A stretch of 32,187 bases of DNA from Solirubrobacterales bacterium (GTDB lineage: Bacteria > Actinomycetota > Thermoleophilia > Solirubrobacterales > 70-9), in assembly GCA_035634215.1 (NCBI GenBank), contig DASQDJ010000257.1, positions 1 to 32,187 on the forward strand. The letters are read 5' to 3'. Position 1 is the first letter of the stretch; each line of letters opens with the position of its first letter. Below the pieces are notes generated by a model. That model saw nothing but the letters and a program-made list of their open reading frames with translations, was not told the DNA's origin and ran no database searches. The translations under genes and the position numbers were made by a program. Below, piece after piece: positions 73 to 14,500 of this stretch.

Positions 73-1815
73 ATGCGGCTTCTCGGCAGGGCGACCGTTT
101 GCCTCCTCGTCGCGCTCGGGGCCGTGGTTGCCCTGGGCGCCGCCCCGCCGGCGGAGGAGGACGACCCGCGTTGCCGGGGGCGGAGCGCGGAGAACGTCGG
201 CCCCGACGGCGACGACGACCTGCGTGGAACCGACGAGCGCGACGTGATCTGGGCCGGGCTCGGTGATGACCGCGTCCACAGCGCGCTCGGCAACGACCTC
301 GTCTGCGGCGGGCCCGGAACCGACCTGCTGCACGGGGGCCGCGGGAACGACACCGTGGACGGCGGCCCGGGCGACGCGGACCAGGCGATCGGCGACCTCG
401 GCGACGACACGGTGCTCGGCGGCAACGGCGAGTTCGACGAGGCGGCCGGCAGCCTCGGCATCGACCGCGTCAGCGGCGGGCCCGGCAGCTTCGACCTCGT
501 CCACGGCGACTACGGCTACGACCGCATGGACGGCGGGCCGGGCGGCGACGACATCGCCTCCTTCGCCACCGACGTCGCCAGCGCCGGCGGCGCCGGTGTC
601 TGGGTCTCGCTCGCGCGCCACAAAGCGCGCGGTGACGGCCACGACCGCCTCTATCGCTTCGAGGACCTCGAGGGCTCGGCCTTTCGCGACGTGCTGATCG
701 GGGACGGGCGCGCCAACGTGATCGACGGCGGCCCGGGCGACGACCGGCTGCGAGGTGGCGGCGGCGCCGACGAACTGCGCGGAGCGCAGGGAGTGGACGG
801 CTGCCAGGGGGCCAAAGGCCGCAGCTTCTCCTGTGGCAAGGAGCCGGCGCCGAAAGCGTCCGTCTACATAGAGGTCGACCTCACGCACGGCGGCGGCGGT
901 GGGCTCAACATCGTCGGCGGCACCGGCAACGACGCGCTGGTCGTGGCTTTCGACGAAGCCTCGTCCAGCTTCGGCGTCACCGCGAAAGGCGCGATCGCGA
1001 TCGGCCCCGGCTGTGTGCGGGCCAGCGCCACCCAGGTCTCCTGCGTGGCCGACCCCGCCCGCTGGTTCACGGCCGACCTCGGCCCCGGCAACGACAAGCT
1101 GCGTGTCTTCGGCTCGTTGGAGGGCGCCGAGAACGTGCGGATCGCCGGCGGGAAAGGAAACGACACGCTCCGCGGCGGCCCCGAGGACGACCTGATCGAG
1201 TCCGGCCCGGGGGCCGACCGCCTTTACGGGGAAGCCGGCTCCGACGGCCTGGTCGGCGGCCTGCCGGGCCCCACCTTCATCTACGGCGGCGAGGACGGCG
1301 ACCTGATGGCCGCGGGCGGCGGCTGCGCCGGCGGGGCGATCGTCGGCGGCCCCGGGCGAGACGACGCCTCCTTCGCCGAGACCCAGGCCCATCCCGGCCT
1401 TCTGATCATCTCCTTCCCCCAGGACAAAGCCTGGATCGACGTCGTGCGCGGCTGCGACTCAGTCCGCCTCGACGACTCCAACGAGGACATGGAGGGCTCC
1501 TTCGACTGGGACGTCCTGATCGGCGACAGCGGCCCCAACGCGATGCTTGGCCAGCCGGGCAGCGACGAGTACTACGGCAACGGCGGCGAGGACATCATCG
1601 ACGCCCGCGACGGCTTCCGCGACTTCGTCATCCAGTGCGGCGAGGGGCGTTACGTGCGCCCGCCCAAGGCCGGGCCGAAAGCCAAACCCCGCCCGCCGGT
1701 GCTGATCGGCACGCCGGCCGGCCGCGCCCTCATGGATCCGTTCGATCCGGCCCCGCTCCTCTGTGCCGAGGAGAAGCACGGCGAGCCGGTGCCGGGCTTG
1801 AACAACAGCGGCTGA
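73..1815 (+). CDS. Secreted calcium-binding repeat protein (hemolysin/RTX-type GGxGxD repeats)
   Basis: 580-aa ORF with high GC3. Signal-like N-terminus MRLLGRATVCLLVALGAVVALGAAPP. Many tandem Gly/Asp nonapeptide motifs, e.g. GNDLVCGGPGTDLLHGGRGNDTVDGGPGDAD and GGKGNDTLRGGPEDDLIESGPGADRLYGEAGSD. Confidence 0.75.
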   Translation: MRLLGRATVCLLVALGAVVALGAAPPAEEDDPRCRGRSAENVGPDGDDDLRGTDERDVIWAGLGDDRVHSALGNDLVCGGPGTDLLHGGRGNDTVDGGPGDADQAIGDLGDDTVLGGNGEFDEAAGSLGIDRVSGGPGSFDLVHGDYGYDRMDGGPGGDDIASFATDVASAGGAGVWVSLARHKARGDGHDRLYRFEDLEGSAFRDVLIGDGRANVIDGGPGDDRLRGGGGADELRGAQGVDGCQGAKGRSFSCGKEPAPKASVYIEVDLTHGGGGGLNIVGGTGNDALVVAFDEASSSFGVTAKGAIAIGPGCVRASATQVSCVADPARWFTADLGPGNDKLRVFGSLEGAENVRIAGGKGNDTLRGGPEDDLIESGPGADRLYGEAGSDGLVGGLPGPTFIYGGEDGDLMAAGGGCAGGAIVGGPGRDDASFAETQAHPGLLIISFPQDKAWIDVVRGCDSVRLDDSNEDMEGSFDWDVLIGDSGPNAMLGQPGSDEYYGNGGEDIIDARDGFRDFVIQCGEGRYVRPPKAGPKAKPRPPVLIGTPAGRALMDPFDPAPLLCAEEKHGEPVPGLNNSG

Positions 1816-2002
1816 GGCGCCCCCCGGCCGACGCCGGCTCGCCGGACGCTCCACCGTCTCTCGCCGCGCGCAAATTGCGCGTCACGTGCGCGTCGCGATC
1901 TGTCAGCCTCCTCGTCGTGGCCGGCTATGCGCTACACCGATACGACATCAATCCGTCTCGGGCATCTGCCCGTCTCGACCACTGAACGTCCGAGGTTCCC
2001 AA

Positions 2003-3139
2003 GTGCCGAAGAGAGATCCCACCGTGCCGCCCTTCACGATTGACGAGCTGGAACCGGTCAAGTTCCTGCAGAGAGGCGCGATGGGGTTCGTGTGGCGCTA
2101 CCGGCAGTTCTCGCGGGCGGCCGGCGCGGCCCGCCATACGCGAACGCCGCTGGGCTACGTCGCCGTCAAGTGCGTGGAGGTCTCCGAGTACACCCGTTCC
2201 ACCATCCAGCACGCCTACAGCGAGGCAAGGGCCCAGCGCCAGGGCGCTGGCAACGGCAACGTCGTGGCTCTCCACGACGTGCTTGTCGTCGCTGACGACC
2301 TGATCGCCCTCGTGATGGAGGAGGTCGAGGGCGGCAGGACCCTCGCGGACGAAATCGACGCCGCCCGCCGCCGCCGCGGCAAGCTATCGGCCGAGACGAT
2401 CGCTCGCTGGGGCGAGGAAATCTCCAATGGCCTGCAGTCCTTTCATTCGCCGTCGGCACGCGGGAATGCCCTTGCCCACCGCGACATCGCCCCCCAAAAC
2501 GTTCTCCTGACCCGCGAGGGAAGGGTGAAATTGGGCGACATGGGGATCGCCACCGTGGTCGGCGACACGGCGCTCGGCCCGACCGATCCGGCGCCTGTCA
2601 TGGGCCGTGTCATCCGGATGGCGCCCGAGCAGTACTACGGCGACGGCGAATGGGGGACGGCGGTCGATTATTGGGCGCTTGGCCTGATCGTCTTCGAGCT
2701 GGCGACCAGCACGCCGCTGGAGCATTTTTGCGCCGAGCGGGTCCCGAAGATGACGCCGTCTCCCGAGTACTCCCGCGCCATCGGCGACGCCGTCAGGCGG
2801 CAGGCCCGCCAGCACCCGACGATGCACCCGGAGTTGCGCGACCTCGTCACCGAGCTTGTCGTCAACGACCCGGCCAAGCGGGCCGGCGCCGGACGTCTCC
2901 GCGAGGCGCGGACCCGCATCGCTTCCGGTCGGATCCAGGACTTCGGCGATTGCACGACCGTCCCGACGGCAACGCCCGAGCGACAGGAAGAGCCGTCTCG
3001 ATGGCTGGCCGAGGGCGAGATCGACCAACTGCGGGAGAGCCTCCGGTCGTCTCCGGAAACCGGCAGCAGCGGGGCGTTCGAGCGGCTGGTCGGACGGCGG
3101 CGCGCCGAGCGCCACCAAGCCCACGAGGAGGAACCTTGA
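2003..3139 (+). CDS. Hanks-type protein kinase, soluble, atypical catalytic motifs
   Basis: Kinase motifs in order: degenerate G-loop RGAMGFVW, VAVK lysine, catalytic loop HRDIAPQNVLL, DMG in place of DFG (KLGDMGIA), MAPEQ. No TM segment. Start placed at GTG 2003, preceded by GAGG at 1992-1995. The track ORF start at 1886 looks like a spurious extension. Confidence 0.85.
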   Translation: MPKRDPTVPPFTIDELEPVKFLQRGAMGFVWRYRQFSRAAGAARHTRTPLGYVAVKCVEVSEYTRSTIQHAYSEARAQRQGAGNGNVVALHDVLVVADDLIALVMEEVEGGRTLADEIDAARRRRGKLSAETIARWGEEISNGLQSFHSPSARGNALAHRDIAPQNVLLTREGRVKLGDMGIATVVGDTALGPTDPAPVMGRVIRMAPEQYYGDGEWGTAVDYWALGLIVFELATSTPLEHFCAERVPKMTPSPEYSRAIGDAVRRQARQHPTMHPELRDLVTELVVNDPAKRAGAGRLREARTRIASGRIQDFGDCTTVPTATPERQEEPSRWLAEGEIDQLRESLRSSPETGSSGAFERLVGRRRAERHQAHEEEP

Positions 3140-4134
3140 TCCCCAGCGCGCTCAACAGGAGATCCCGGTTCGAGGACGGCCGCCCCACCGGCCCGCAGGG
3201 TTTCCTGAGCCCGGCGGAGACCGGCGGCGTTCACGTGCCGGAGCGGTTCGGAAACCAGGTGGCAAGCCACCTGATCCTGAACATGCTGAACCCGCCCGGA
3301 CTCACGGTGCCGCTGATGCTGGCGGTCCACGGCCCGCCGGGGGAGGGCAAGACCCTGCAGTGCCGCAAGGTGTTCGAGGCGATGGGAGTGGAGGCCGTGG
3401 CTCCCCCGGCCGAGGCCTTCGAGAGCAAGGCGGCCGGCGAGGCCCAGCGGGCGCTACTCGCGACCTACCAGAAGGCAGGCGAAGCGAACTCGGAGATCGA
3501 CGCCGCTTCACGCCGGCGCGGCGCGGCGGGCCCCCCTTATCTCGAGGCGCTGTTCGTCAACGACCTCGATCAGCGCATCGGGCGCAAGGACGGCGCGATC
3601 CAGCAGACGGTCAACACGCAGCTGATCTCGGCGAGCTTGATGGAGCTCGCCGACAACCCCCGGTACGTCGGCGGGCGGCCGGTGCCGCGAGTGCCGATCG
3701 TGATCACCGCGAACGACCTGACCGCGATTCACCCGCCGCTGTACCGCGACGGACGGATGAGGCGGTTTCTCTGGAAGCCGACCTTCGAGGAGCGGGCGCA
3801 GACCCTCGCGGCGATGTACCCCGAGGCCGAACTCGACGCCAAGCGCGCCGCGACCTTGATGCGCCTGGCCGGCTATTCAGATGAAGCTCCGAGCGAGGGC
3901 CCCGGCTTGGCGCCGAGCACCGCCACCTTCGCGGCTATCAAGGTGCTGCTATACGAGCGGGCCGTCCTGGACCTGATGCGGACCTATGGCCCGTCGGGAG
4001 TCCTGGCGGCGATCCGGCTTGGCGAGGTCGACCCCGTCGCCATCCAGCCGAACCTCTCCTACGAGGCGTTGCTCGTGGCGTTGGAGGAACTGCGGGAATC
4101 CCACCTGCTCGAGGACCACCTGCGGGCAGGGTGA
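3136..4134 (+). CDS. AAA+ ATPase, Rubisco-activase-like clade
   Basis: Walker A GPPGEGKT (3331-3354) and Walker B LFVNDLD. Extended similarity to Rubisco activase as I recall it (KTLQCRKVFEAMGV; QTVNTQLISASLMELADNP; RVPIVITANDLTAIHPPLYRDGRMRRFLWKPTFEER). TTG start at 3136 overlaps the kinase TGA (TTGA) and follows a strong SD, GAGGAGG, at 3125-3131. The upstream part of track ORF 2650..4134 is off-frame overlap with the kinase. Confidence 0.85.
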   Translation: MIPSALNRRSRFEDGRPTGPQGFLSPAETGGVHVPERFGNQVASHLILNMLNPPGLTVPLMLAVHGPPGEGKTLQCRKVFEAMGVEAVAPPAEAFESKAAGEAQRALLATYQKAGEANSEIDAASRRRGAAGPPYLEALFVNDLDQRIGRKDGAIQQTVNTQLISASLMELADNPRYVGGRPVPRVPIVITANDLTAIHPPLYRDGRMRRFLWKPTFEERAQTLAAMYPEAELDAKRAATLMRLAGYSDEAPSEGPGLAPSTATFAAIKVLLYERAVLDLMRTYGPSGVLAAIRLGEVDPVAIQPNLSYEALLVALEELRESHLLEDHLRAG

Positions 4135-4145
4135 AGGAGAGAACC

Positions 4146-4718
4146 GTGGCCGAGACCTACACCTACACCGAGACGTACACCTACACCCGCTCGGAGCTGA
4201 TCACCGACCTCATCGTCGGCGCCTTCGAGCACGTCCTTCGCCAGCTCGGCTCCACCTCGACGTTGCCGGCGGACGGCATCGAAGAGACGCTGAAGCTCGG
4301 CTGGCTGCGGCAGGTCTCGGTGGTGGCGAGCAGCAAGCGCGACGACGGCTCCTCGGACTGGCACATCGCCCTCACGGCGGAGATCGACGCGGAGACGCAC
4401 GTCGCCCGCCTCGCGGTCGCGGCCGAACGCACCATCGCCTTGCCGAAGGAGCGCGCCGACGACATCGCCGACCAACTCGCCTATTACGGCCAAATGTTCG
4501 TCAAAGTCGTCAAGCGCCACCGCCGCCCGAACTGGCGAATCGGCTGGTGGATCACGCCCACGAGCGCCGGCGCCGCGAACCGGCCTCGCTTCAACGAGCT
4601 GACCGGCACCCACCGGGCGACGACGCACCGGGCCAACCCTCAGAAACTCGGTCGCTTCAGTCCCGACGAGATCGACGAGGCCAGCTTCGGAATCGAGGTG
4701 TACGACGATGAGGTCTGA
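4146..4718 (+). CDS. Hypothetical protein, possible bacterial HORMA-domain (Cap7-like) protein
   Basis: High-GC3 ORF. SD AAGGAGA (4135-4141) precedes GTG 4146; an alternative GTG at 4131 overlaps the ATPase stop as GTGA. The N-terminus VAETYTYTETYTYTRSELITDLIVGAFEHVL resembles the (T/S)Y(S/T)YT...TY.T strand plus helix at the start of bacterial HORMA proteins as I remember them. The functional call is tentative. Confidence 0.6.
   Translation: MAETYTYTETYTYTRSELITDLIVGAFEHVLRQLGSTSTLPADGIEETLKLGWLRQVSVVASSKRDDGSSDWHIALTAEIDAETHVARLAVAAERTIALPKERADDIADQLAYYGQMFVKVVKRHRRPNWRIGWWITPTSAGAANRPRFNELTGTHRATTHRANPQKLGRFSPDEIDEASFGIEVYDDEV
4152..4187 (+). repeat. 18-bp in-frame tandem duplication (2 copies, 17/18 identical) encoding (ETYTYT)x2
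   Basis: GAGACCTACACCTACACC (4152-4169) followed directly by GAGACGTACACCTACACC (4170-4187). Confidence 0.95.
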
Positions 4719-5361
4719 GCGCGCTGCAGATCGATTCGAGTCGGGAGCGGTCGAGCCGACGCCGACCGTCAACCTGATCCTGCCCGACGGCTCCACCTGC
4801 TCGATTCCACTCGAGGAGCGCATCACTTCGTTCGGGCGGCATCCGCACAGCACCGTGGTGATCGACGATCCCACTGTGTCCTCGACCCATTTGACGTTGG
4901 AGAGGGTCGGCGGCCAGATCAAGGTGCGTGACGAGTCCTCGTACGGCACCCGGCTGCAGGGCGCCCTCCTCGTGTCGGAACGCTCGATCAAGGTCCACCA
5001 CGGGCAATCGATCACCTTTGGCGGCGACGACCAGGGTCGCTACCAGCTGGTGGTCCGCGATCCGTCCGAGCACGTGCCGACGGAGCCCCCTCGCCATCGA
5101 CCGGACCGCATTCGCCTTCCGGCTCCCCTGCAACGCATCGCGGAGGCGCTCGTGTACCAGTACGTCGAGCGAGTCGGGCCGGCGCCCCGGGCGGCGAGCG
5201 TCGAGGAGATCGCGGAGCGGCTGGAGGTCCATCCCGCGACGATCCGGCGGGGCCTTCACGACCTCGAGTCGATCCTCAAGATCGATGCCGATCTACGCGG
5301 CCCCAAGCGCCAGCAGGCCCTCGCCGAGCGCATCCTGCTGACCGACGCCCACCGATCGTAG
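4708..5361 (+). CDS. FHA-domain protein with C-terminal helix-turn-helix (putative phosphothreonine-dependent DNA-binding regulator)
   Basis: FHA signature: FGR...VVIDDPTVSSTHLTLERVGGQIKVRDESSYGTRLQG. C-terminal wHTH-like ASVEEIAERLEVHPATIRRGLHDLESIL. ATG 4708 overlaps the preceding gene by 11 nt. Confidence 0.85.
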   Translation: MRSERAADRFESGAVEPTPTVNLILPDGSTCSIPLEERITSFGRHPHSTVVIDDPTVSSTHLTLERVGGQIKVRDESSYGTRLQGALLVSERSIKVHHGQSITFGGDDQGRYQLVVRDPSEHVPTEPPRHRPDRIRLPAPLQRIAEALVYQYVERVGPAPRAASVEEIAERLEVHPATIRRGLHDLESILKIDADLRGPKRQQALAERILLTDAHRS

Positions 5362-5380
5362 GCCGGGTAGGCTTGGCGGC

Positions 5381-5584
5381 GTGAGCCGTCCCCCCAGCGA
5401 CGACGAGGCGGTGGCGATCGCCGCGGCGATCCAGCGCTTCCTCGCCGAGACCTCGGCGCCGGCGGGTGGCGAGCCGCGCCAGCGGACCAGTCCCTGGCAC
5501 CGGGCCGCCCTGCTGGAGGGGGTCGGCAAGCGCGTGACGCTCGAGGACCTGGAAGGCGAAGGAGGAGGCAGATGGCCGTCGTGA
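5381..5584 (+). CDS. Small hypothetical protein (67 aa)
   Basis: Very high GC3 across the ORF. GTG start. Overlaps the next gene by 13 nt. The DDEAVAIAAAIQRFLAE...W motif is vaguely like small OadG/AccE-type subunits, but this is not supported beyond that. Confidence 0.5.
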   Translation: MSRPPSDDEAVAIAAAIQRFLAETSAPAGGEPRQRTSPWHRAALLEGVGKRVTLEDLEGEGGGRWPS

Positions 5585-5781
5585 AGATCATCGAGCTGGT
5601 CGGCAGCTCCAAGACGTCGACCGACGACGCGGCGCGGCAGGCGCTCGCGCAGGCGCAGGGCACCCTGCGCAACATTCGCGCCGTCGACATCGTCTCGACC
5701 GGGATCCGCGGCGAGAACCTCGACGAGTACCGCGCACATGTGCGGGTCGCCTTCCTGGTCGAGGGCACGGAGGTCGACTGA
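5572..5781 (+). CDS. Dodecin-family flavin-binding protein
   Basis: 69 aa. KIIELVGSSKTSTDDAARQALAQAQGTLRNIRAVDIV...EYRAHVRVAF matches the dodecin pattern. Strong SD GAAGGAGGAGG upstream. Confidence 0.85.
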   Translation: MAVVKIIELVGSSKTSTDDAARQALAQAQGTLRNIRAVDIVSTGIRGENLDEYRAHVRVAFLVEGTEVD

Positions 5782-6176
5782 TGGCCGACGAGGCGACCGG
5801 CGGCGAGACGAAGGAAGTGACGCGCGAGGAGGCGCGGCGGTTGGTCGAGGAAGGCGCGCAGCTGGTCGACGTCCGGGCCGACCACGAGTGGGACGCCGGC
5901 CGCATCCCCGGCGCCAGGCACGTGCCGCTCGCCGAGCTGAACGAGCGCACCGGGGAGATCGCCCAGGACCGGCCGGTCGTCCTCTACTGCCGGGGCGGGA
6001 CCCGCTCGACGATGGCGGCGGAGGCCCTCGCGGCCGCGGGCTACGACGCCGCGAAGCTGACGGACGGCATCGTCGGCTGGGAGGAGGAGGGCCTGCCACT
6101 CGAGCCGGAGGGTGGCTACGCGGCCGAGTCTGGCCAGGCGGCGGCGGTCCTCGAGGCACGGAAGAAGCCCTCGTAG
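5781..6176 (+). CDS. Rhodanese-domain sulfurtransferase
   Basis: VDVRADHEWDAGRIPGARHVPL plus active-site loop YCRGGTRS. The ATG overlaps the dodecin stop (TGATG). Confidence 0.9.
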   Translation: MADEATGGETKEVTREEARRLVEEGAQLVDVRADHEWDAGRIPGARHVPLAELNERTGEIAQDRPVVLYCRGGTRSTMAAEALAAAGYDAAKLTDGIVGWEEEGLPLEPEGGYAAESGQAAAVLEARKKPS

Positions 6177-6251
6177 CCGGGTCTCCGCCCGCGCTCGTCT
6201 CGTCGCTCGAAACTTAAATACCCAAATCCCTGTCAGGTTTTGCTATTTTCT

Positions 6252-6269
6252 CTAGCTCCATGGAGCTAG
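6252..6269. promoter_or_regulatory. Perfect 18-bp palindrome centred on the sulfite reductase start codon
   Basis: CTAGCTCCA|TGGAGCTAG; the ATG at 6260-6262 sits at the dyad. The upstream region is unusually AT-rich and lacks an SD. Confidence 0.4.
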
Positions 6270-8101
6270 TGGTCGACCAAGGCAAGCAGCAGCGGGGGAA
6301 GGGCCGCGCCGGCACCCTCGACAACCCGGAGACCTACGACAACGTCCCGGGCCACATCATCCCGATCATCGAGCGCGAGTTCGACGACTTCGACAACGAA
6401 GCCGGGAAGTTCCTCGCCGGGGCGATGGCCGAAGACCAGTTCATCGGCTTCCGCCTCAAACAGGGCGTGTACGGGCAGCGCCAGCCCGACGTCCAGATGC
6501 TGCGGATCAAGCTTCCGTTCGGCGGCGTCTCACCGGAGCAGATGGAGGCCTTCGCCAGCGTCGTAGAGCAGTACGCGCCGCTCGTCAAAGGCCACATCAC
6601 GACCCGGCAGAACATCCAGATCCACCACGTGCCGCTGCCCGACGCTGCCAAGGCGATCCGCGAGCTCTCCGACGCCGGCCTCTCCTCGCGCGAGGGCTGC
6701 GGCAACACGATCCGCAACGTCACCGGCGACCCGTGGGCGGGCGTCGCCGCCGACGAGGTCTTCGACCCGACGCCCTACGCCGGCGCCTACGTCCGCTACT
6801 TCGTGCGGCACCCGACCACGCAGCTGATGCCGCGCAAGATCAAGACTTCATTCACCGGCTCCGACGCCGACCGGGCGATCAGCGGCATCCACGACATCGC
6901 CTTCCTCGCCCGCGAGCGCGACGGCGTGCGCGGCTTCGAGATCCGGGTCGGCGGCGGCACCTCGATCATGGCCCGCATCGCCCCGACCCTCTACGAGTTC
7001 GTCGAGGCTGACAACGGCGACTACCTCAAGGTCGCCGAGGCGGCGCTGCGCATCTTCGACCGCCAGGAGTGGCTGCGCGTCAACCGGGCCCGCGCCCGGA
7101 TCAAGGTGCTGATCGACAAGATCGGCATCGACGCCTTCCGCGAGCAGGTCGAGGAGGAGCTGCGGGGCGAGTGGGTCGCCGAGCGCGACTTCAGCGCCGA
7201 GCTGGTCGAGCGCCTCCGCTACGACCACGACGAGGAGGCCAACGCGCCGGCGCCGCCGGTCGCGCCCGCCTCGCCCAACGGGGAGCGCTCCGAGTTCGAG
7301 CGCTTCCTCGAGGCCAACGTGCAGGCGCAGCGCCAGGAGGGCTTCTCGACGGTCGAGGTCAAGGTCGAGCGCGGCGACCTGACGCCGGAGCAGTTCCGCG
7401 GCCTCGCCGCGATCATGCGCGAGTACACGGGTGGCTACGCCCGCAGCACCGTGCAGCAGAACCTCGTCCTGCGCTGGGTGCGTAACGAGGCGCTCTTCGA
7501 CGTCTGGCAGCGGCTCGGCGAGCTCGGCCTCGACGAGGCCGGGCCGCGCGAGGTCTCAGACGTCGTCAGCTGCCCCGGCACCGACAGCTGCAAACTCGGC
7601 ATCACCAGCTCGATGGGCCTCAACCGGGCGATCAAGGAGCGGGTCCAGTCGATGGAGATCTCCGACGAGCTGACCAAGCGCATCCACATCAAGATGAGCG
7701 GCTGCCCGAACGGCTGCTCGCAGCACCACATCGCCAACATCGGCTTCTACGGCGCCTCGCTGAAAGTCGGCGGCCGCCAGATGCCCGCCTACATCCCGCA
7801 CGTCGGCGGCAACTACGAGGGCGGCGAGGTGATCTTCGGCAAGCGGCTGAAATCGCGGCTGCCGGCCAAACGCGTCCCCGAGGCGGTCGAGCGCTGGCTG
7901 CGGCTCTACGAGGCCGAGCGCGCCGACGGCGAGGAGTTCAACGCCTTCGCCGAGCGGACCGGCGCCGAGACCTTCGAAGCCGCGATCAAGGACCTGACCC
8001 TGCCGGCCGAGTTCAGCCTCGAGACGATGCAGCAGTTCATCGACTGGCAACGCTCCAGCCCCTACAAGGTCGAGCGCGGCGAGGGGGAGTGCGCGATCTG
8101 A
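6260..8101 (+). CDS. sir: Ferredoxin-dependent sulfite reductase (nitrite/sulfite reductase family, siroheme/4Fe-4S)
   Basis: 613 aa. Cluster-ligand motifs SCPGTDSCKLGIT and SGCPNGCSQHHIANIGFYG. NiR/SiR ferredoxin-like repeats. Located in the sulfate-assimilation operon. Confidence 0.9.
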   Translation: MELVVDQGKQQRGKGRAGTLDNPETYDNVPGHIIPIIEREFDDFDNEAGKFLAGAMAEDQFIGFRLKQGVYGQRQPDVQMLRIKLPFGGVSPEQMEAFASVVEQYAPLVKGHITTRQNIQIHHVPLPDAAKAIRELSDAGLSSREGCGNTIRNVTGDPWAGVAADEVFDPTPYAGAYVRYFVRHPTTQLMPRKIKTSFTGSDADRAISGIHDIAFLARERDGVRGFEIRVGGGTSIMARIAPTLYEFVEADNGDYLKVAEAALRIFDRQEWLRVNRARARIKVLIDKIGIDAFREQVEEELRGEWVAERDFSAELVERLRYDHDEEANAPAPPVAPASPNGERSEFERFLEANVQAQRQEGFSTVEVKVERGDLTPEQFRGLAAIMREYTGGYARSTVQQNLVLRWVRNEALFDVWQRLGELGLDEAGPREVSDVVSCPGTDSCKLGITSSMGLNRAIKERVQSMEISDELTKRIHIKMSGCPNGCSQHHIANIGFYGASLKVGGRQMPAYIPHVGGNYEGGEVIFGKRLKSRLPAKRVPEAVERWLRLYEAERADGEEFNAFAERTGAETFEAAIKDLTLPAEFSLETMQQFIDWQRSSPYKVERGEGECAI

Positions 8102-8796
8102 TGAACCCCGTCGCCACCCCCACAGAGATCGACGCCGAGGCGATTGCCGCCGAGCTGGAGGAGAAGAGCGCCGGCGAGGCGATCGAGTGGATGTTCGAGA
8201 CCTTCGGCGAGCGCCACTACATCGCCTGCTCGTTCCAGAAGACGAGCTCGGTGACCGCGCACCTGGCCGCGCGGATCAATCCCGAGGCCCGCTTCTTCTA
8301 TCTGGATACCGACGTTCTCTTCCCGGAGACCTACGAGACGCGCGACCGGCTCGCCGAGCATCTCGGCGTCGAGTTCGACCGCTTCCACAACCTGACGCTG
8401 GCCGAGCAGGCCGAGCGGCATGGCGACGAGCTGTGGAAGCGCGACCCCGACGCCTGCTGCGGGCTGCGCAAGGTCGAGCCGATGCGGAGGGCGCTTTCTT
8501 CCGTAGACTGCTGGCTCGCCGGCGTCCGCCGCGAGGACTCAGCCAGCCGCGCCAAGACCCCCAAGTTCGCCTGGGACAAGCGGTTCGAGTTGTGGAAGCT
8601 GAACCCGATCGCGGACTGGACCGAGCGCGACGTCTGGAACTACATCCGTGAGCACCACCTCCCGTACAACCCGCTCCACGACCACGGCTACCCGTCGATC
8701 GGCTGCACGCACTGCACCAAGCCGGTCGTCGCGGGCGGCTCGGCGCGCGACGGCCGCTGGGTCGGCCTCGCCAAGACGGAGTGCGGGCTCAACTAG
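8101..8796 (+). CDS. cysH: Adenosine 5'-phosphosulfate (APS) reductase, Fe-S type
   Basis: PAPS/APS reductase fold (IACSFQKTSSV, C-terminal ECGLN). Carries the CC (DACCGLRKV) and CxxC (GCTHCT) cysteine pairs typical of the Fe-S APS-reductase subclass. ATG 8101 overlaps the sir stop (TGATG); an alternative GTG lies at 8089. Confidence 0.9.
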   Translation: MNPVATPTEIDAEAIAAELEEKSAGEAIEWMFETFGERHYIACSFQKTSSVTAHLAARINPEARFFYLDTDVLFPETYETRDRLAEHLGVEFDRFHNLTLAEQAERHGDELWKRDPDACCGLRKVEPMRRALSSVDCWLAGVRREDSASRAKTPKFAWDKRFELWKLNPIADWTERDVWNYIREHHLPYNPLHDHGYPSIGCTHCTKPVVAGGSARDGRWVGLAKTECGLN

Positions 8797-8878
8797 CGCA
8801 GTCGCTCCGGCTCGCTTCCAGTAGAAGACCTAGTCCCCCGACGACCACGTCCCCCCGAACGATTGGTGAAACGACTTC

Positions 8879-9955
8879 ATGACCGAGACCATGGCTGAGC
8901 TGTCCCTGACCCTCTCTGAGCGCCACACCGCCGACTTCGAGATGATCGGCAACGGCGGCTTCGCGCCGCTGACCGGCTTCCAGGGCGCCGCCGACTGGGA
9001 GCGCGTCTGTGCCGAGATGCGGACCGCCGACGGCGATTACTGGCCGATCCCGATCACCCTGGCCACCGACCTCGATTGCTCGGTCGGCGACGTTGTCGCC
9101 CTCTCCAGCGACGAAGGCAAGCCGCTGGGACGGATCACGGTCGAGGAGATCTTCGAGCGTGACGTCAAGCGCGAGGCCGAGCTGGTCTACCGCACGACCG
9201 ACGAGGCGCACCCGGGCGTGGCGGCGATCTACGAGGAGGGGGCGCGCTGCATCGCCGGCCCGGTCGAGGTCGACGCGCTGCCCGACCACGAAGAGGCGTT
9301 CATGAAGCGCTACCTGACCGCCGAGGAGTCGCGCAAGGCGTTCGCCGAGCGCGGCTGGAAGCGCGTGGTCGCCTTCCAGACCCGCAACCCGATCCACCGC
9401 GCCCACGAGTACCTCACCAAGGCGGCGCTGGAGATCACCGACGGCCTCTTCATCCACCCGCTGATCGGCAAGACCAAGGCCGGCGACATCCCGGCCGACG
9501 TGCGGATGCGCTGCTACGAGGTCCTGATGGAGAAGTACTACCCCCAGGACCGGGTCATCCTCGGCGTCTTCCCCTCGAAGATGCACTACGCCGGCCCGCG
9601 GGAGGCGATCCTGCACGCGATCGCGCGGCGCAACTACGGCGCCACCCACTTCATCGTCGGACGTGACCATGCCGGTGTCGGCGACTACTACGGCACCTAC
9701 GACGCGCAGCACATCTTCGACGAGGTGGACACGAAGGAGCTCGGCATCGAGCCGCTCTTCTTCGAGCACAGCTTCTGGTGCAACGAGTGCGAGGGAATGG
9801 CGTCGGGCAAGACCTGCCCGCACGGCAACGAGGCGCACGTGTTCCTGAGCGGCACCAAGGTGCGCGAGATGCTCGGCAACGGCGAAAGGCCGCCGCAGGA
9901 GTTCTCGCGCAACGAGGTCGCCGACATCCTGATCGACGCTTACAAGGAGGACTGA
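8879..9955 (+). CDS. sat: Sulfate adenylyltransferase (ATP sulfurylase, homo-oligomeric type)
   Basis: QTRNPIHRAHEYL and GRDHAGVG motifs; about 358 aa. Confidence 0.9.
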   Translation: MTETMAELSLTLSERHTADFEMIGNGGFAPLTGFQGAADWERVCAEMRTADGDYWPIPITLATDLDCSVGDVVALSSDEGKPLGRITVEEIFERDVKREAELVYRTTDEAHPGVAAIYEEGARCIAGPVEVDALPDHEEAFMKRYLTAEESRKAFAERGWKRVVAFQTRNPIHRAHEYLTKAALEITDGLFIHPLIGKTKAGDIPADVRMRCYEVLMEKYYPQDRVILGVFPSKMHYAGPREAILHAIARRNYGATHFIVGRDHAGVGDYYGTYDAQHIFDEVDTKELGIEPLFFEHSFWCNECEGMASGKTCPHGNEAHVFLSGTKVREMLGNGERPPQEFSRNEVADILIDAYKED

Positions 9956-9962
9956 CGTAGCG

Positions 9963-10514
9963 ATGGCCGACAAGGGATTCACCCTCTGGTTCACCGGGCT
10001 CTCCGGGGCCGGCAAGACGACCATCTCCGGGATCCTGGAGAAGGAGCTGCGCGAGCGCGGCTCGAAGCTCGAGATCCTCGACGGCGACGTCGTGCGCGAA
10101 AACCTCTCCAAGGGGCTCGGCTTCTCCAAAGAGGACCGCGACACCAACGTGCGCCGCATCGCCTTCGTCGCCGACCTGCTCAGCCGCAACGGCGTGCCGG
10201 TGATCACCGCCGCGATCTCCCCCTACAAGGAGATTCGCGACGAGGCCCGCGAGACGATGGGCGACCGCTTCATCGAGGTGTACGTGAAGGCGTCGGTCGA
10301 CACCTGCGCCGACCGCGACGTCAAGGGCCTCTACAAGAAAGCCTTCGCCGGCGAGATCAAGGAATTCACCGGCGTCTCGGATCCCTACGAGGCCCCCGAG
10401 AACCCCGAGGTCGTCTGCGACACCGAAAGCGAAACCCCTGAGGAGTCGGCGCAGAAGCTGATTGCCTACCTCGAGCAGCGCGACCTGCTGCCGGCGGCAC
10501 CAGTAGCCGCTTAG
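9963..10514 (+). CDS. cysC: Adenylylsulfate (APS) kinase
   Basis: FTLWFTGLSGAGKTTI P-loop, LDGDVVR, and family-typical length of 183 aa. Confidence 0.95.
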   Translation: MADKGFTLWFTGLSGAGKTTISGILEKELRERGSKLEILDGDVVRENLSKGLGFSKEDRDTNVRRIAFVADLLSRNGVPVITAAISPYKEIRDEARETMGDRFIEVYVKASVDTCADRDVKGLYKKAFAGEIKEFTGVSDPYEAPENPEVVCDTESETPEESAQKLIAYLEQRDLLPAAPVAA

Positions 10515-10720: not shown

Positions 10721-10787
10721 TCTTGACGCGCCCCAGGGGTGGGGCGTGGCGCTCACCAAGCGTCTACTTCAAGAGAAGGGAACCACG

Positions 10788-11441
10788 ATGAGCATGAAGC
10801 TCAAGGTCCTCGGTCTGGGGATCCTTGCCGTCATGGCAACGAGTGCGTTCACGGTGATGAACGCCTCGGCCCAAGATCAGCCAAACAGTCATTTCACGTC
10901 AGAGGCTGAACACGTAATCATCAAAGGGAAAGACGCTTTCGGCAGCGGACATTCCTTGCAATTCAAAGGATCGGGCGATCCGATCAGCTGCACAGACGCG
11001 ACGTATCACGGCACAATAGTCGAGTCGGACAAAACAACTCAGGCTATTCAGGTCAGGCCCCACTACACACAATGCGCCACAACGAGCGGCACCTGGGGCT
11101 CAGTAACCGTCCATGTCCCGACCGGCTGTGGGACAAACGTGTATGAATTCACAAGCGGTAATCCTGGCACAATTCACGTTAACTGCCAGATTACGATTAC
11201 ACATCCGAACTGCACCATCCGGGTGCCTGTTCAGACACGAAACGGCGCGACCTATACACAGGTCACCGAACAGGGCAAACACGCCATTACACTCCATGTA
11301 AACGCTCCTGAAATTACAACCCACTACGAGTCTGGCATCTGTGTCTTCTTGGGCACAAGCCACACCTCGACCATGACGGGCAACGCCACAGTCTGGGGTG
11401 AGAACCAAGCGGGAGGCCGAGTCGGCATCACAGCGACATAA
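10788..11441 (+). CDS. Small secreted six-cysteine protein, paralog 1 (unknown function)
   Basis: ATG 10788 follows GAGAAGGGAA. Signal peptide MSMKLKVLGLGILAVMATSAFTVMNASA. Six Cys conserved with the 18337..19005 paralog. Markedly lower GC and A/T-ending codons. Confidence 0.8.
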   Translation: MSMKLKVLGLGILAVMATSAFTVMNASAQDQPNSHFTSEAEHVIIKGKDAFGSGHSLQFKGSGDPISCTDATYHGTIVESDKTTQAIQVRPHYTQCATTSGTWGSVTVHVPTGCGTNVYEFTSGNPGTIHVNCQITITHPNCTIRVPVQTRNGATYTQVTEQGKHAITLHVNAPEITTHYESGICVFLGTSHTSTMTGNATVWGENQAGGRVGITAT

Positions 11442-11459
11442 GGGCATCTCTGAATGACG

Positions 11460-11495
11460 GCCGTCGGGCCCGGTCCTCAGATCGGGCCCGACGGC
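11460..11495 (+). terminator. Hairpin (perfect 12-bp stem, 12-nt loop) after paralog 1
   Basis: GCCGTCGGGCCC ggtcctcagatc GGGCCCGACGGC. Confidence 0.55.
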
Positions 11496-11497
11496 TA

Positions 11498-11526
11498 TTG
11501 ACGTTGAGAACATCAGGTGATACCGT
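11498..11526 (+). promoter_or_regulatory. Candidate promoter for the two giant secreted-protein genes
   Basis: TTGACG-N17-TACCGT immediately after the hairpin, about 70 nt upstream of ATG 11595. Confidence 0.3.
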
Positions 11527-11594
11527 GTCCATACTTTGGGGGTACCGATTGCGGCCGCTTCGCAGCGTCGCCGCTTTTAGGGAGGAAAAGGACG

Positions 11595-14500
11595 ATGGGA
11601 ACTTCCGCCAAGAGGGCGCTCCGGATCGGAACGATGGCGCTGGCGGTCGTCACGCTAGTCATCGCTCTGAGCAGCCCAGCCTCGGCGGCTGCGCCCGACC
11701 TTCTTTTGCGCGTCCCACAGGAGGACGGGCTACCAAAATTTGGCGGCGGTGCGGGGCAGACGAACAACCCCCGCGGTGTCGCTGGAAACCCGGCCACTGG
11801 TCACTTCTACGTCTCCGAGTTAGAAAACGCGCGCGTCAGCGAGTACACCGCCTGGGGTCTTTTCGTGCGGGCCTGGGGATGGAACGTAGCCCCCGACGGA
11901 ACTCCGGGCGACACGTCAAGCGACGAATTGGAGACGTGCGGCCCGCCTCAGCCGGAAGCAGAACCCTCCCCGGATCTTTGTCAAGCGGGGAATGCAGGCC
12001 CTGGTAAGGGCCAGCTCGACTGGCCGATGGGCCTCGCGGTCGACCCCAGCGGCGACGTCTACGTGTTTGAGTTCTTCAACCGACGCGTCCAGAAATTCAG
12101 CTCGTCGGGGGAGTTCCTGCTGATGTTCGGCGCCGACGTCAACCAGACCAAAGTTGGCGAAGGGGCCTCCGGAGCGCAACGGAACGTCTGCACGGACGCG
12201 TCCGGCGACACCTGTCAGGCGGGCACTTCCGGTGAAGGCACAAGTCAACTTGACGCGACCCTCGGCGATTACATCGACTACTCCCCGGCCGAAGGCGGAA
12301 CGATCCTGGTCGGAGACAAAGGCGGCATCCAGGTCTTCGATACCAACGGCATCCACAAAAAAACCATCCTCTTCTCGGGCGCGCTGTCTGCGCTGGCCGG
12401 CAAACAGGTCAATGGCCTCGACGTCGACAAAGACGCGAATATCTACATCACTCTCGACGCCACCGAAGACGTCTACAAGCTCTCACCGACTGGGGTGCCG
12501 CTCGACCCGGGCAAACCGGGCAGCTCGAGCTTCAAAGCGGAGGAGCCGCTTGGAGTCGCGGTGGATGTGGAGGGCAGCGTCTACGCGATTGACGATCCGG
12601 AAGGCTTCGTCGGAGCGCCCCCTTATGTCCTCAAATACAGCGCGGCGGGTGCGAAGCTGGTGCCGACAGCGGCAGAAGAAGGAGCCGGCACGCCGTTTCC
12701 GGAAAGGTCGTCGGGTGCGCGCCTTACCGCAATCGCGACGAACATCTGCTCGGGCAGCGAGGCACCCGGCAACCTCTACGTCGGCTTCTTCAACGCCGGC
12801 TCCCCGCCTCACGTCAGCTACGTCGACGCATACGGCACCGCTCCGATTGGCTGCGAATTGCCGCCGCCGAACCCGCCGGTAGTGGGCGAGCAGTTCGCGA
12901 CCTTCGTTGGGAGCGAAGAGGCGACGCTGCGGGCGCTGATCAACCCTTGGTTCTTCCCCGACACCACCTACTACGTCGAATATGGGGTCGCCCCGTGCTC
13001 GACGGGCGGTTGCACCAATAAAGCGCCCGTTCCGCCGGCACTCCTGACCCAGAGATCCGTCAAAGCCTTCGTCTCAACGGCCGACGTGATCCTTGAGGGC
13101 CTTGCACCCGGCACGACTTACCACTACCGCTTCGTCGCGGACAGCTCCGGTGGCGAGCAGGTGCACGGCATCGATCCGGACGGAGAGGGCCCGCTGAAAG
13201 CGGATCTTGAAAACGGCATGGAAGGAACCTTCAGGACCCCCGTCGCGGGTGAGCCGCCGGAACCATGCTCCAACGACCCCTTCCGCATCGGACCTGGCGC
13301 CGACCTTCCCGATTGCCGCGCCTACGAGATGGTCTCGCCCCTCGACAAAGGCAACGCCGACGTGGCACTTGGGATCGGCAGGAATAACGTCCGCTACCGA
13401 CTCTTCGAAGTGAACAAGAGCGCTTTGTCGGGCGAGCGGTTCACCTTTACCGCAGCCACGGCTTTCGGTGACGCGGAGAGCGCCGCATTCTCCTCTCAGT
13501 ACCTCGCGGAGCGAGACGGGGACGGCTGGACGAGCAAAGGAATTTCGCCGCCGCGCACCGAACCGGGGCTGCCGGTGGACCTGGTCTTTGGCGCCGAATT
13601 CCATGGCTTCAGCGAGGATCTGTGTCGCGGCTGGCTGCGCCTTTACTCGGTTGCGCCCCTGACGGTCGACGCGATCGAAAAGTTCCCCAACCTCTACAGG
13701 CGCGACAACTGTCTTCCATCGCCCAATTACACCGCGCTGACGACAAAAGAACCACCGAACCGATCGGCCGAGGAATACGACAGGCTGTTAATCGACGGCT
13801 TCTCGGCGGACGGAAGCCACGCAATTTTCACCGCCCCCGACACGCTCCATCCCGAAGCACCTACGCCGAAAGCCGGCGAGGAGGTTCTTTACGAGCATGT
13901 GCCGGGCGACCTGCGCTTCGTCTGCTACCTGCCGACTGGGGAGCCGAGCCCGGAAGCCTGCTCGGCGGGGACCAAGGCGGTGCCGGGCTCCTCGAACTTT
14001 TCGCCGTTGAAGAACGCGATCTCCGCTGACGGCTCGCGGATCTTCTGGACCGCCTATACGACCAATGAGATCAACGATAGCCAGCCCGGCCGCATCTTCG
14101 TGCGGATCGATGGACAGGAAACCGTCGCCATTTCGGATGCGGTGCCGTCTTCGGGCCGTGCTTTCTTCTGGACCGCTGCGGACGACGGCTCAAAGGCAAT
14201 TTTCTCGTTCGTCTCGGGTGATCGGAGCGGCGAGCTCTACGAGTTCGACGTCGACACCGAAACGCCGACGCTGATCGCCGAGGGGGTCGAGGGCCCGATG
14301 GGGGCGAGCGAGGACGCCTCGCGCCTCTACTTCGCCTCGACTGAGGACTTGGACGATGATGGCCCGGGCAGCGCCGGCGCCCACAACCTCTACTTCTACG
14401 AAGCTAATCCGGGTGGGGGGCCCGGGACCTATCAGTTCGTCATGGCGCTGGCAGATGCCGATGTCGGGTCGATGAATCCGAGCGCCCAGGGCGGGGCGAC

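Follow-up and report, generated by a model that had tools for sequence, protein, structure and literature searches.

What does an ATPase of the Rubisco activase (Rca) type do next to a kinase gene and a HORMA-like gene, with no gene for carbon fixation in the vicinity? This question is raised by one gene of contig DASQDJ010000257.1 from a Solirubrobacterales bacterium, of which the whole stretch of 32,187 nucleotides (in the following referred to as the window) was analyzed. A first, sequence-only reading of this DNA had described the gene product as a Rubisco-activase-like AAA+ ATPase and had proposed that a member of the RCA clade was recruited here to a different client. The results presented below suggest, at a probability of roughly 0.62, that four consecutive genes, encoding a Ser/Thr protein kinase, the ATPase, a HORMA-fold protein and a protein with an FHA domain and a helix-turn-helix (HTH) domain, constitute one signaling cassette around a HORMA conformational switch, for which the Rca-like AAA+ protein would be the reset enzyme. 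The ATPase most likely resets HORMA, and not Rubisco, because a HORMA gene lies directly downstream of it here and in 17 of 17 related loci.

Family and clan of the ATPase

A phmmer search against the chains of the PDB placed the ATPase closest to Rca from Nostoc (6z1d, E = 1.4e-38), tobacco (3t15, E = 1.6e-33) and Arabidopsis (4w5w, E = 2e-32), with 35–43% identity across the AAA+ module, whereas the best AAA+ proteins other than Rca (VAT, AFG2, proteasome Rpt and p97) reached an E-value of 2.8e-8. The alignment with Arabidopsis Rca extends to residue 313 of the ATPase and thus includes the helical subdomain. When an AlphaFold2 (AF2) model of the ATPase (predicted local distance difference test, pLDDT, 85; predicted template-modeling score, pTM, 0.83) was used as Foldseek query against the PDB, the best eight matches were exclusively Rca chains (E = 5e-19 to 1e-13, template-modeling (TM) score 0.80–0.84), followed by proteasome subunits, AFG2 and p97 at E-values of about 1e-8 and TM scores of about 0.5. 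The similarity over most of the AAA+ module that had been claimed in the sequence-only reading is thereby confirmed; the Rca strings quoted there agree with tobacco and Arabidopsis Rca in the phmmer alignments, and all protein blocks that had been quoted lie inside the 332-aa translation. Among the three families that had been considered (RCA, CbbX and Trip13/Cap6), Rca gave by far the best match, and none was obtained for the other two. TRIP13/Pch2 was absent from the 44 PDB phmmer matches and from the Foldseek top 50, no PADLOC model including those for Cap6/TRIP13 matched the ATPase, and NCBIfam yielded no CbbX family match, nor does the window contain any cbb genes. In Pfam only the generic family PF00004 was assigned, and in NCBIfam only weak matches to CDC48, CdvC and PAN were found. 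By sequence and predicted fold, the ATPase is a member of the Rca family and not a TRIP13/Cap6 or CbbX protein. Its closest relative in a scan of GTDB genomes shares 42% identity. The TTG at position 3136 is its likely start codon, as it overlaps the stop codon of the kinase gene (cTTGA, with TGA at 3137–3139) and as homologues share the same short N-terminal extension in the alignment.

Judged from the family alignments (A3, A4 and A7), the ATPase motifs are intact, with the Walker A lysine, the Walker B aspartate, the sensor-1 asparagine and both arginine fingers being present. Gly66, Gly69, Gly71 and Lys72 of Walker A are invariant in all three alignments, and Glu70 is invariant in A3 and A7. 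Lys72, Asp143, Asp145, Asn193, Arg204 and Arg207 do not vary in A3 and A7 either; in A4, which is more diverse, Asp145 and Arg204 are nearly invariant and the other four remain invariant. Pore loops 1 and 2 (PL1 and PL2) were assigned following the definitions and residue roles given for Nostoc Rca (NosRca) (Flecken et al., bioRxiv 10.1101/2020.05.16.099382). The PL2 framework is retained in the window ATPase (QRIGRKDGAIQQTVN), but in its subclade Gln157 (IQQTVN) stands in place of the PL2 tyrosine (Tyr116 in NosRca, Tyr188 in tobacco Rca, NtRca), a residue that is essential in plant Rca (bioRxiv 10.1101/2020.05.16.099382). In NosRca, this tyrosine makes no contact with the peptide and forms a hydrogen bond to Gln121 of the next subunit (bioRxiv 10.1101/2020.05.16.099382), the equivalent of which in the window ATPase is Gln162. 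Across the relatives described in the following, the PL2 tyrosine is kept in 77 of 138 sequences on the side of the window ATPase and in 20 of 38 sequences on the canonical side.

These relatives were collected by an exhaustive profile-free search, which gave 387 cluster representatives at E < 1e-10. In a neighbor-joining tree computed for 176 sequences from 184 columns of the AAA+ core, with 100 bootstraps, 38 canonical sequences are separated from 138 "short" ones (the window ATPase and 137 others; median length of this clan 292 aa) with a bootstrap value of 95%. The canonical side comprises plant Rca, cyanobacterial Rca-like proteins bearing an SSUL domain and two short forms of cyanobacterial or uncultured origin. 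Sequences of the short clan originate from Pimelobacter simplex, Gordonia iterans, Dietzia maris, Rhodococcus, Rhodoglobus, Micromonospora and Microtetraspora and, furthermore, from Anaerolineales, Dehalococcoidia, Chloroflexota and Acidobacteriia. The earlier placement in an RCA clade holds at the level of the family but not inside the canonical clade, as the clan of the window ATPase is a bacterial one of its own, which is larger and more diverse.

The ATPase is not a canonical Rubisco activase, as its clade, its accessory domains, its PL2 residue and the context of its gene in the window all differ from those of such an enzyme. It is accordingly highly improbable that it activates a Rubisco whose genes lie elsewhere in the genome and that its neighbors are coincidental or merely regulatory. 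This explanation would fit the strong and specific Rca similarity over the whole AAA+ module, helical subdomain included, as well as the many relatives of the short clan that match PF21228 (RuBisCO_activase_AAA_helical). The window ATPase itself, however, had no match to PF21228 at E ≤ 0.1, although its helical subdomain is still Rca-like in fold according to Foldseek. In Pfam it shows neither the plant N-domain nor the SSUL domain (PF00101), the latter being present in the cyanobacterial homologues, and its N-terminal 30 residues are disordered in the AF2 model and unrelated. Besides the 95% bootstrap split from plant and cyanobacterial Rca and the replacement of the PL2 tyrosine by glutamine, the occurrence of short-clan relatives in Pimelobacter, Gordonia, Dietzia and Rhodococcus, which are genera of heterotrophs, argues against a function on Rubisco. 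A Rubisco role would also leave the operon linkage to HORMA in 17 of 17 loci from several phyla unexplained. No Rubisco, cbb or carboxysome genes were found by Pfam scans of approximately 30 open reading frames (ORFs) of the window, in line with what the sequence-only reading had stated, or in the flanks of the 17 related loci.

The HORMA partner and its N-terminal tail

The gene directly downstream of the ATPase gene encodes a protein without any sequence match in Pfam or the PDB. Its AF2 model (pLDDT 89, pTM 0.83) retrieved only HORMA proteins among the top 50 Foldseek matches in the PDB (best E = 1.7e-5, TM score of about 0.5), including HTP-1/2, HIM-3, REV7, MAD2, ATG13/101 and HORMA2 of CBASS, an anti-phage system that signals through cyclic oligonucleotides (6p8u, E = 7e-3). 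On the basis of this confident model, the neighbor that had been termed HORMA-like is a true HORMA-fold protein, this fold being defined by a core of three helices and a beta-sheet and by a safety-belt hairpin at the C-terminus. The HORMA model of PADLOC matched the window protein only weakly (E = 0.0055, N-terminal 40 residues) and gave no match for the three HORMA relatives that were tested. The longest ORF of the gene begins with GTG at 4131; the GTG at 4146 is preceded by AAGGAG at 4134–4139, and the homologues have a length of 190 aa, which corresponds to this second codon.

For a census of the linkage, a hidden Markov model (HMM) was built from the window HORMA family and run on those loci for which downstream sequence was available. 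A gene of this family was found immediately downstream of the ATPase gene, often overlapping its stop codon, in all 17 distinct loci of the short clan but in none of five loci from the canonical side. The 17 loci differ in their flanks, range in guanine-plus-cytosine (GC) content from about 35 to 70% and belong to Actinobacteria, Chloroflexota, Acidobacteria and metagenomes, with Pimelobacter simplex, Micromonospora, Microtetraspora, Anaerolineales and Acidobacteriia among them. One further locus, L022, has a divergent HORMA candidate in the same position after the ATPase gene. On the canonical side, a Leptolyngbya metagenome-assembled genome (L010, 5473–7530) contains a short, SSUL-less Rca-like gene without a HORMA gene, flanked by genes for an RsbW-like anti-sigma kinase (HATPase_c_2) and a PD40 beta-propeller protein, which may represent another non-Rubisco context.

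Most of the loci share a three-gene architecture (architecture B) consisting of a gene here called gene-1, the ATPase gene and the HORMA gene, without a kinase or an FHA protein. The kinase/FHA-HTH form of the window (architecture A) is rare and derived, with an unrelated kinase in the place of gene-1. Gene-1, located directly upstream of the ATPase gene in L007, L009, L011–L014, L017, L019, L021 and L023–L030 (for example at 3495–4010 in L024 and at 3444–4004 in L025), encodes proteins of 150–220 aa whose N-terminal helix is hydrophobic or amphipathic and precedes a stretch that resembles a coiled coil. These proteins gave no Pfam or PADLOC match and could be effectors or partners bearing a closure motif.

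The most distinctive trait of the HORMA family is its N-terminal tail, with the consensus M-x-x-T-x-T-x-T-x-T-x-T-x-T-R. Among 21 family members, Thr or Ser occupies 108 of 125 of the alternating tail positions, compared with 13 of 123 of the positions interleaved between them. The tail of the window protein reads MAETYTYTETYTYTR. As an 18-bp tandem duplication in the gene encodes the hexapeptide ETYTYT twice, this alternating-threonine tail has been lengthened by a recent repeat expansion. The tail is also present in loci without a kinase or FHA gene, so it is presumably not primarily a target of these proteins but a handle for the ATPase, although phosphorylation of the tail could come on top of this in the window.

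A putative HORMA reset circuit and its alternatives

Two published structures give this tail a possible meaning. In the complex of NosRca with Rubisco, the N-terminal peptide of RbcL lies in the central pore, with Ala4, Thr6, Thr8 and Thr10 occupying successive PL1/PL2 pockets (bioRxiv 10.1101/2020.05.16.099382). In the CdnC:HORMA:Pch2 complex of CBASS, the N-terminus of HORMA threads into the pore of Pch2/TRIP13 (Ye et al., bioRxiv 10.1101/694695); this N-terminus has a conserved Ser or Thr at every second position, and a tail-less HORMA cannot be reset (bioRxiv 10.1101/694695). As the tail of the window family matches the pattern that is gripped by both pores, it appears plausible that the ATPase threads this tail.

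The following circuit can be envisaged. HORMA would toggle between an open and a closed state and, when closed on a partner peptide, would engage the Ser/Thr kinase by activating or scaffolding it. The kinase would then write phosphothreonine marks, which the FHA-HTH protein would read and translate into altered transcription. A hexamer of the Rca-like AAA+ protein would grip the tail MAETYTYTETYTYTR in the pore at its center, where the alternating threonines would sit in the PL1/PL2 pockets, and an ATP-driven pull would partly unfold HORMA and dissolve the complex, thereby keeping or turning the system off. Activation of the kinase by closed HORMA is proposed because a CD-NTase holds the equivalent place in type III CBASS, where the CD-NTase encoded beside HORMA and Pch2 is activated by closed HORMA and also docks HORMA on the ATPase. 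The kinase/FHA part of the circuit is thus drawn by analogy, and we infer the threading of the tail, a binding partner of HORMA, the kinase substrates and a biological role in either stress signaling or anti-phage defense. The idea that the neighbor of about 190 aa is the client of the ATPase, which had been put forward from the sequence, gains strength from the pairing of AAA+ and HORMA genes in 17 of 17 loci and from the alternating Thr/Ser tail.

The kinase, the ATPase, the HORMA and the FHA-HTH genes overlap or abut and are all located on the plus strand. The coupling of the ATPase gene to a kinase gene upstream (Pkinase, E = 8e-28) and a HORMA gene downstream, which the sequence-only reading had pointed out, is that of a tight operon. 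The kinase contains the catalytic motifs VAVK, HRDIAPQN, DMG and APE. Its longest ORF starts 117 nt upstream of GTG 2003, which is preceded by GAGG at a distance of 7 nt and corresponds to the start of the homologues (MPKRDP); the 39 N-terminal residues encoded by 1886–2002 are probably not translated. The FHA domain of the fourth protein was identified by Pfam (E = 1.5e-11, residues 40–105) with Gly43-Arg44, Ser58 and His61 being conserved, residues 157–195 matched HTH_11, HTH_30 and a DeoR-type HTH, and the protein matched an EspM-like family in NCBIfam (E = 3e-8). The complete kinase-AAA+-HORMA-FHA cassette recurs in the metagenomic contigs L001 and L002 (63–65% identity) and in the distant L003 (39%), in unrelated flanks, with one of L001 and L002 having wholly different flanks. 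In a partial contig, L015, the kinase gene precedes the AAA+ gene, so that a kinase lies upstream of the AAA+ gene in L001, L002, L003 and L015 and an FHA gene occupies the same position in L001–L003. In L003, the FHA protein encoded after HORMA has no HTH. Directly upstream of the L003 cassette, three more FHA proteins and a fused FtsW/RodA-transpeptidase are encoded (928–9211), an arrangement resembling the actinobacterial fhaA-fhaB-rodA-pbpA-pknAB cluster of cell-wall signaling. A homology between the C-terminal tail of the kinase (S.WL..EEL..LR...GAFERLVG) and the C-terminus of gene-1 was considered and rejected (HMM E-value of about 0.2 in a five-sequence database). The conserved C-terminal kinase motif GAFERLVG..RARRH is a candidate interaction peptide, for which no link to anything was established.

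It is improbable, though conceivable, that the kinase, the FHA-HTH protein or the gene-1 product is the actual client of the ATPase and that HORMA is a mere docking adaptor, comparable to p31comet or CdnC for TRIP13/Pch2. TRIP13/Pch2 systems do position their substrates through adaptors (bioRxiv 10.1101/694695), and the upstream gene, be it gene-1 or the kinase gene, is also linked consistently to the ATPase gene. However, the feature common to both architectures is the alternating Thr/Ser tail of HORMA, which is both the known handle in CBASS and the pattern bound in the Rca pore. Furthermore, HORMA is invariant while gene-1 has been exchanged for an unrelated kinase in architecture A, and the N-termini of gene-1 products are hydrophobic and not Thr-alternating.

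A defense function would be compatible with the proposed reset mechanism. Both the four-gene cassette and the three-gene form might act in anti-phage or abortive-infection defense akin to type III CBASS, with HORMA sensing a phage peptide, the kinase or the gene-1 product as effector and the Rca-like ATPase curbing autoimmunity. Bacterial modules of HORMA and AAA+ are so far known from CBASS immunity only, and the cassette occurs in unrelated, variable flanks, some of which contain genes suggestive of defense. In L028 (4115–5834) a DUF4407 gene lies before the cassette and genes for a ThsB-type TIR protein and a TPR-S protein lie after it, which gives this locus the look of a defense island; L025 adjoins a PIN toxin gene, L011 a STAND-LuxR gene, and a patatin gene is located near L026. 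The best PADLOC matches of the kinase are the defense kinases mad6 (1e-37) and PD-T4-6 (4e-29), but these are generic matches to the kinase domain, and PADLOC gave no match for the AAA+, HORMA and gene-1 proteins apart from the weak HORMA match mentioned above. No relatives were found in a plasmid collection (tblastn) or in the viral contigs of IMG/VR, the flanks in the window consist of housekeeping sulfate assimilation, an RTX-like protein and dodecin, and the output protein is a transcription factor and not a toxin. Taken together, a defense function is rather unlikely, but clearly less so than the adaptor explanation.

Several observations weigh against the HORMA reset circuit itself. The glutamine in place of the essential PL2 tyrosine in the window subclade could mean a modified or weakened pore, although the tyrosine is retained by most of the short clan. 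The link to a kinase is limited to a small subclade, as most relatives have architecture B and thus neither kinase nor FHA protein. Moreover, the sequences revealed no partner with a closure motif, the resemblance between the kinase tail and gene-1 being not significant. Threading, hexamer formation and the change of the HORMA state are all postulated steps, and the root of the AAA+ tree, which matters for the evolutionary considerations below, comes from midpoint rooting.

With a mean p-distance of 0.60, compared with 0.42 in the canonical Rca clan, the short clan shows the greater diversity, and it is taxonomically broader and holds the midpoint root, which divides the tree into 21 and 155 sequences (midpoint rooting only, on a sampling biased toward the query). 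For these reasons Rca perhaps derives from a HORMA-remodeling ATPase. The tree thus weakly suggests that Rubisco activase arose from such an enzyme and kept its preference for alternating-threonine tails. While the sequence-only reading is supported in its assumption of a client other than Rubisco, for which the HORMA pairing and the Thr/Ser tail speak, midpoint root and diversity suggest that the recruitment may have gone in the direction opposite to the one it implied. Tentatively, and at odds that we put below even, cyanobacterial and plant Rca could be descendants of ancient bacterial HORMA-remodeling ATPases whose inherited grip on tails was later used on the N-terminus of RbcL (A-x-T-x-T-x-T), and both cassette forms would then represent a second, TRIP13-independent lineage of bacterial HORMA signaling or immune systems.

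Table 1. Positions of the features assigned in the window, with the basis of each assignment.
Feature	Position	Strand	Basis and remarks
RTX-type calcium-binding repeat protein, 580 aa	73-1815		HemolysinCabind E 1e-22; upstream of the cassette
Ser/Thr protein kinase, Hanks-type	1886..3139	+	Pfam Pkinase E 8.4e-28; likely start GTG 2003, 378 aa
Rubisco-activase-like AAA+ ATPase, 332 aa	3136..4134	+	PDB phmmer, Foldseek, PF00004 E 1e-12, tree
Walker A GPPGEGKT, residues 66-73 (Lys72)	3331..3354	+	Family alignments
Pore loop 1 equivalent ESKAAG, residues 96-101	3421..3438	+	Aligns with NosRca PL1 ESPDAG (phmmer, 6z1d)
Walker B LFVNDLD and pore loop 2 (Q146-N160)	3550..3621	+	phmmer alignment; Asp143 = NosRca Asp102
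Sensor-1 Asn193	3712-3714	+	Family alignments
Arginine-finger box RDGRMRR, Arg204/Arg207	3745..3765	+	Aligns with Rca RDGRMEKF; = NosRca Arg169/Arg172
HORMA-fold protein (predicted), 190 aa	4146..4718	+	AF2 and Foldseek; likely start GTG 4146
18-bp tandem duplication, ETYTYT twice	4150..4187	+	Tandem Repeats Finder (TRF), 2.1 copies, 95% match
FHA and C-terminal HTH protein, 217 aa	4708..5361	+	Overlaps HORMA gene by 11 nt
Dodecin, rhodanese, then complete assimilatory sulfate-reduction cluster	5572-10514

The remaining genes of the window encode an RTX-like protein, dodecin, rhodanese, a sulfate-assimilation cluster, large secreted proteins and housekeeping enzymes (Table 1). The RTX gene upstream of the cassette is also found in L002, but not in L001. 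The sulfate cluster comprises a ferredoxin-type sulfite reductase (identified by Pfam) as well as PAPS/APS reductase, sulfate adenylyltransferase and APS kinase, whose assignment relies on their translations and on the PAPS_reduct annotation in the syntenic L002. In L002 this cluster is parted from the cassette by genes for TetR, DsbA and a PIN/RHH toxin-antitoxin pair. The region 10746–18175 has a GC content of 0.60–0.66 compared to about 0.70 elsewhere, with a strongly negative GC skew of -0.17 to -0.21 at 15–18 kb, and contains genes for three proteins that appear to be secreted, with lengths of 231, 1274 and 979 aa. The 1274-aa protein has one NHL repeat, the 979-aa protein gave no Pfam match, and both have C-terminal tails rich in Lys, Arg and Gly. 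This region may be a horizontally acquired island. A promoter and terminator scan over 1700–5700 was uninformative.

Comparison with known systems

The literature search brought up no account of HORMA being paired with an Rca-like ATPase, and the terms "HORMA" and "Rubisco activase" were never mentioned together as whole words in the papers searched. With green-type Rca (6z1d, 6z1f, 3t15, 4w5w), the window ATPase shares the AAA+ family, Walker A and B, sensor-1, the RDGRM box and the non-canonical PL1 (ES..AG) and PL2 (Q.TVN.Q), and the likely handle of HORMA mirrors the N-terminus of RbcL in having a small residue or Thr at every second position. Unlike green-type Rca, it belongs to a separate clan, has a glutamine in PL2 and neither N-domain nor SSUL domain, and is encoded in an operon with HORMA, kinase and FHA-HTH genes and not alongside Rubisco or carboxysome genes; its clan occurs in Actinobacteria, Chloroflexota and Acidobacteria. 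The red-type activase CbbX and CbbQO are AAA+ ATPases as well, and they too pull on a terminal peptide in order to remodel a protein, but they show no detectable specific similarity to the window ATPase, and cbb genes are absent from its neighborhood.

Pairs of a Hanks-type kinase and an FHA regulator in bacteria (EspM-type, OdhI/GarA) resemble the cassette in that the kinase is encoded together with an FHA-HTH protein, yet we know of no such pair with HORMA and an AAA+ remodeler between its genes. If the proposed circuit is correct, a HORMA switch connected to both Ser/Thr phosphorylation and an FHA-HTH transcription factor would be a new bacterial wiring, reminiscent of eukaryotic Hop1-Mek1 (HORMAD, kinase, FHA). 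Rca, in turn, gains numerous relatives outside photosynthesis and a testable hypothesis for the origin of RbcL N-terminal threading.

Eukaryotic checkpoints and the CBASS immunity of bacteria both depend centrally on HORMA switches that are reset by AAA+ proteins, and to our knowledge the reset motor is TRIP13/Pch2 in every case described. The closest functional parallel to the cassette is the TRIP13/Pch2 (Cap6) and HORMA (Cap7/Cap8) pair of type III CBASS. Both systems combine a HORMA gene with a classic-clade AAA+ gene, both HORMA tails have Ser or Thr at every second residue, in both the ATPase acts, or is predicted to act, as a reset enzyme or attenuator, and an enzyme gene lies beside the pair (a CD-NTase gene there, a kinase gene here). 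In contrast to these systems, the window ATPase is not a specific homologue of TRIP13/Pch2, its HORMA partner is only distantly related by fold, and neither a CD-NTase nor a nucleotide-activated effector is encoded in the cassette, for which a phosphothreonine signal read by the FHA-HTH protein is proposed instead. As no CD-NTase (SMODS) was found in the window cassette or in any of the related loci examined, the cassette is not a CBASS. A second motor, unrelated to TRIP13/Pch2 at the family level, would imply that the combination of HORMA and unfoldase arose or was rewired more than once, and it would offer a natural comparison for the way in which pore loops read alternating Ser/Thr tails. 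The cassette is thus best read as a switch of HORMA and AAA+ proteins that differs from the known ones in its motor family and in its signaling output, the ATPase being a functional analog of TRIP13/Pch2 that belongs to the Rca family.

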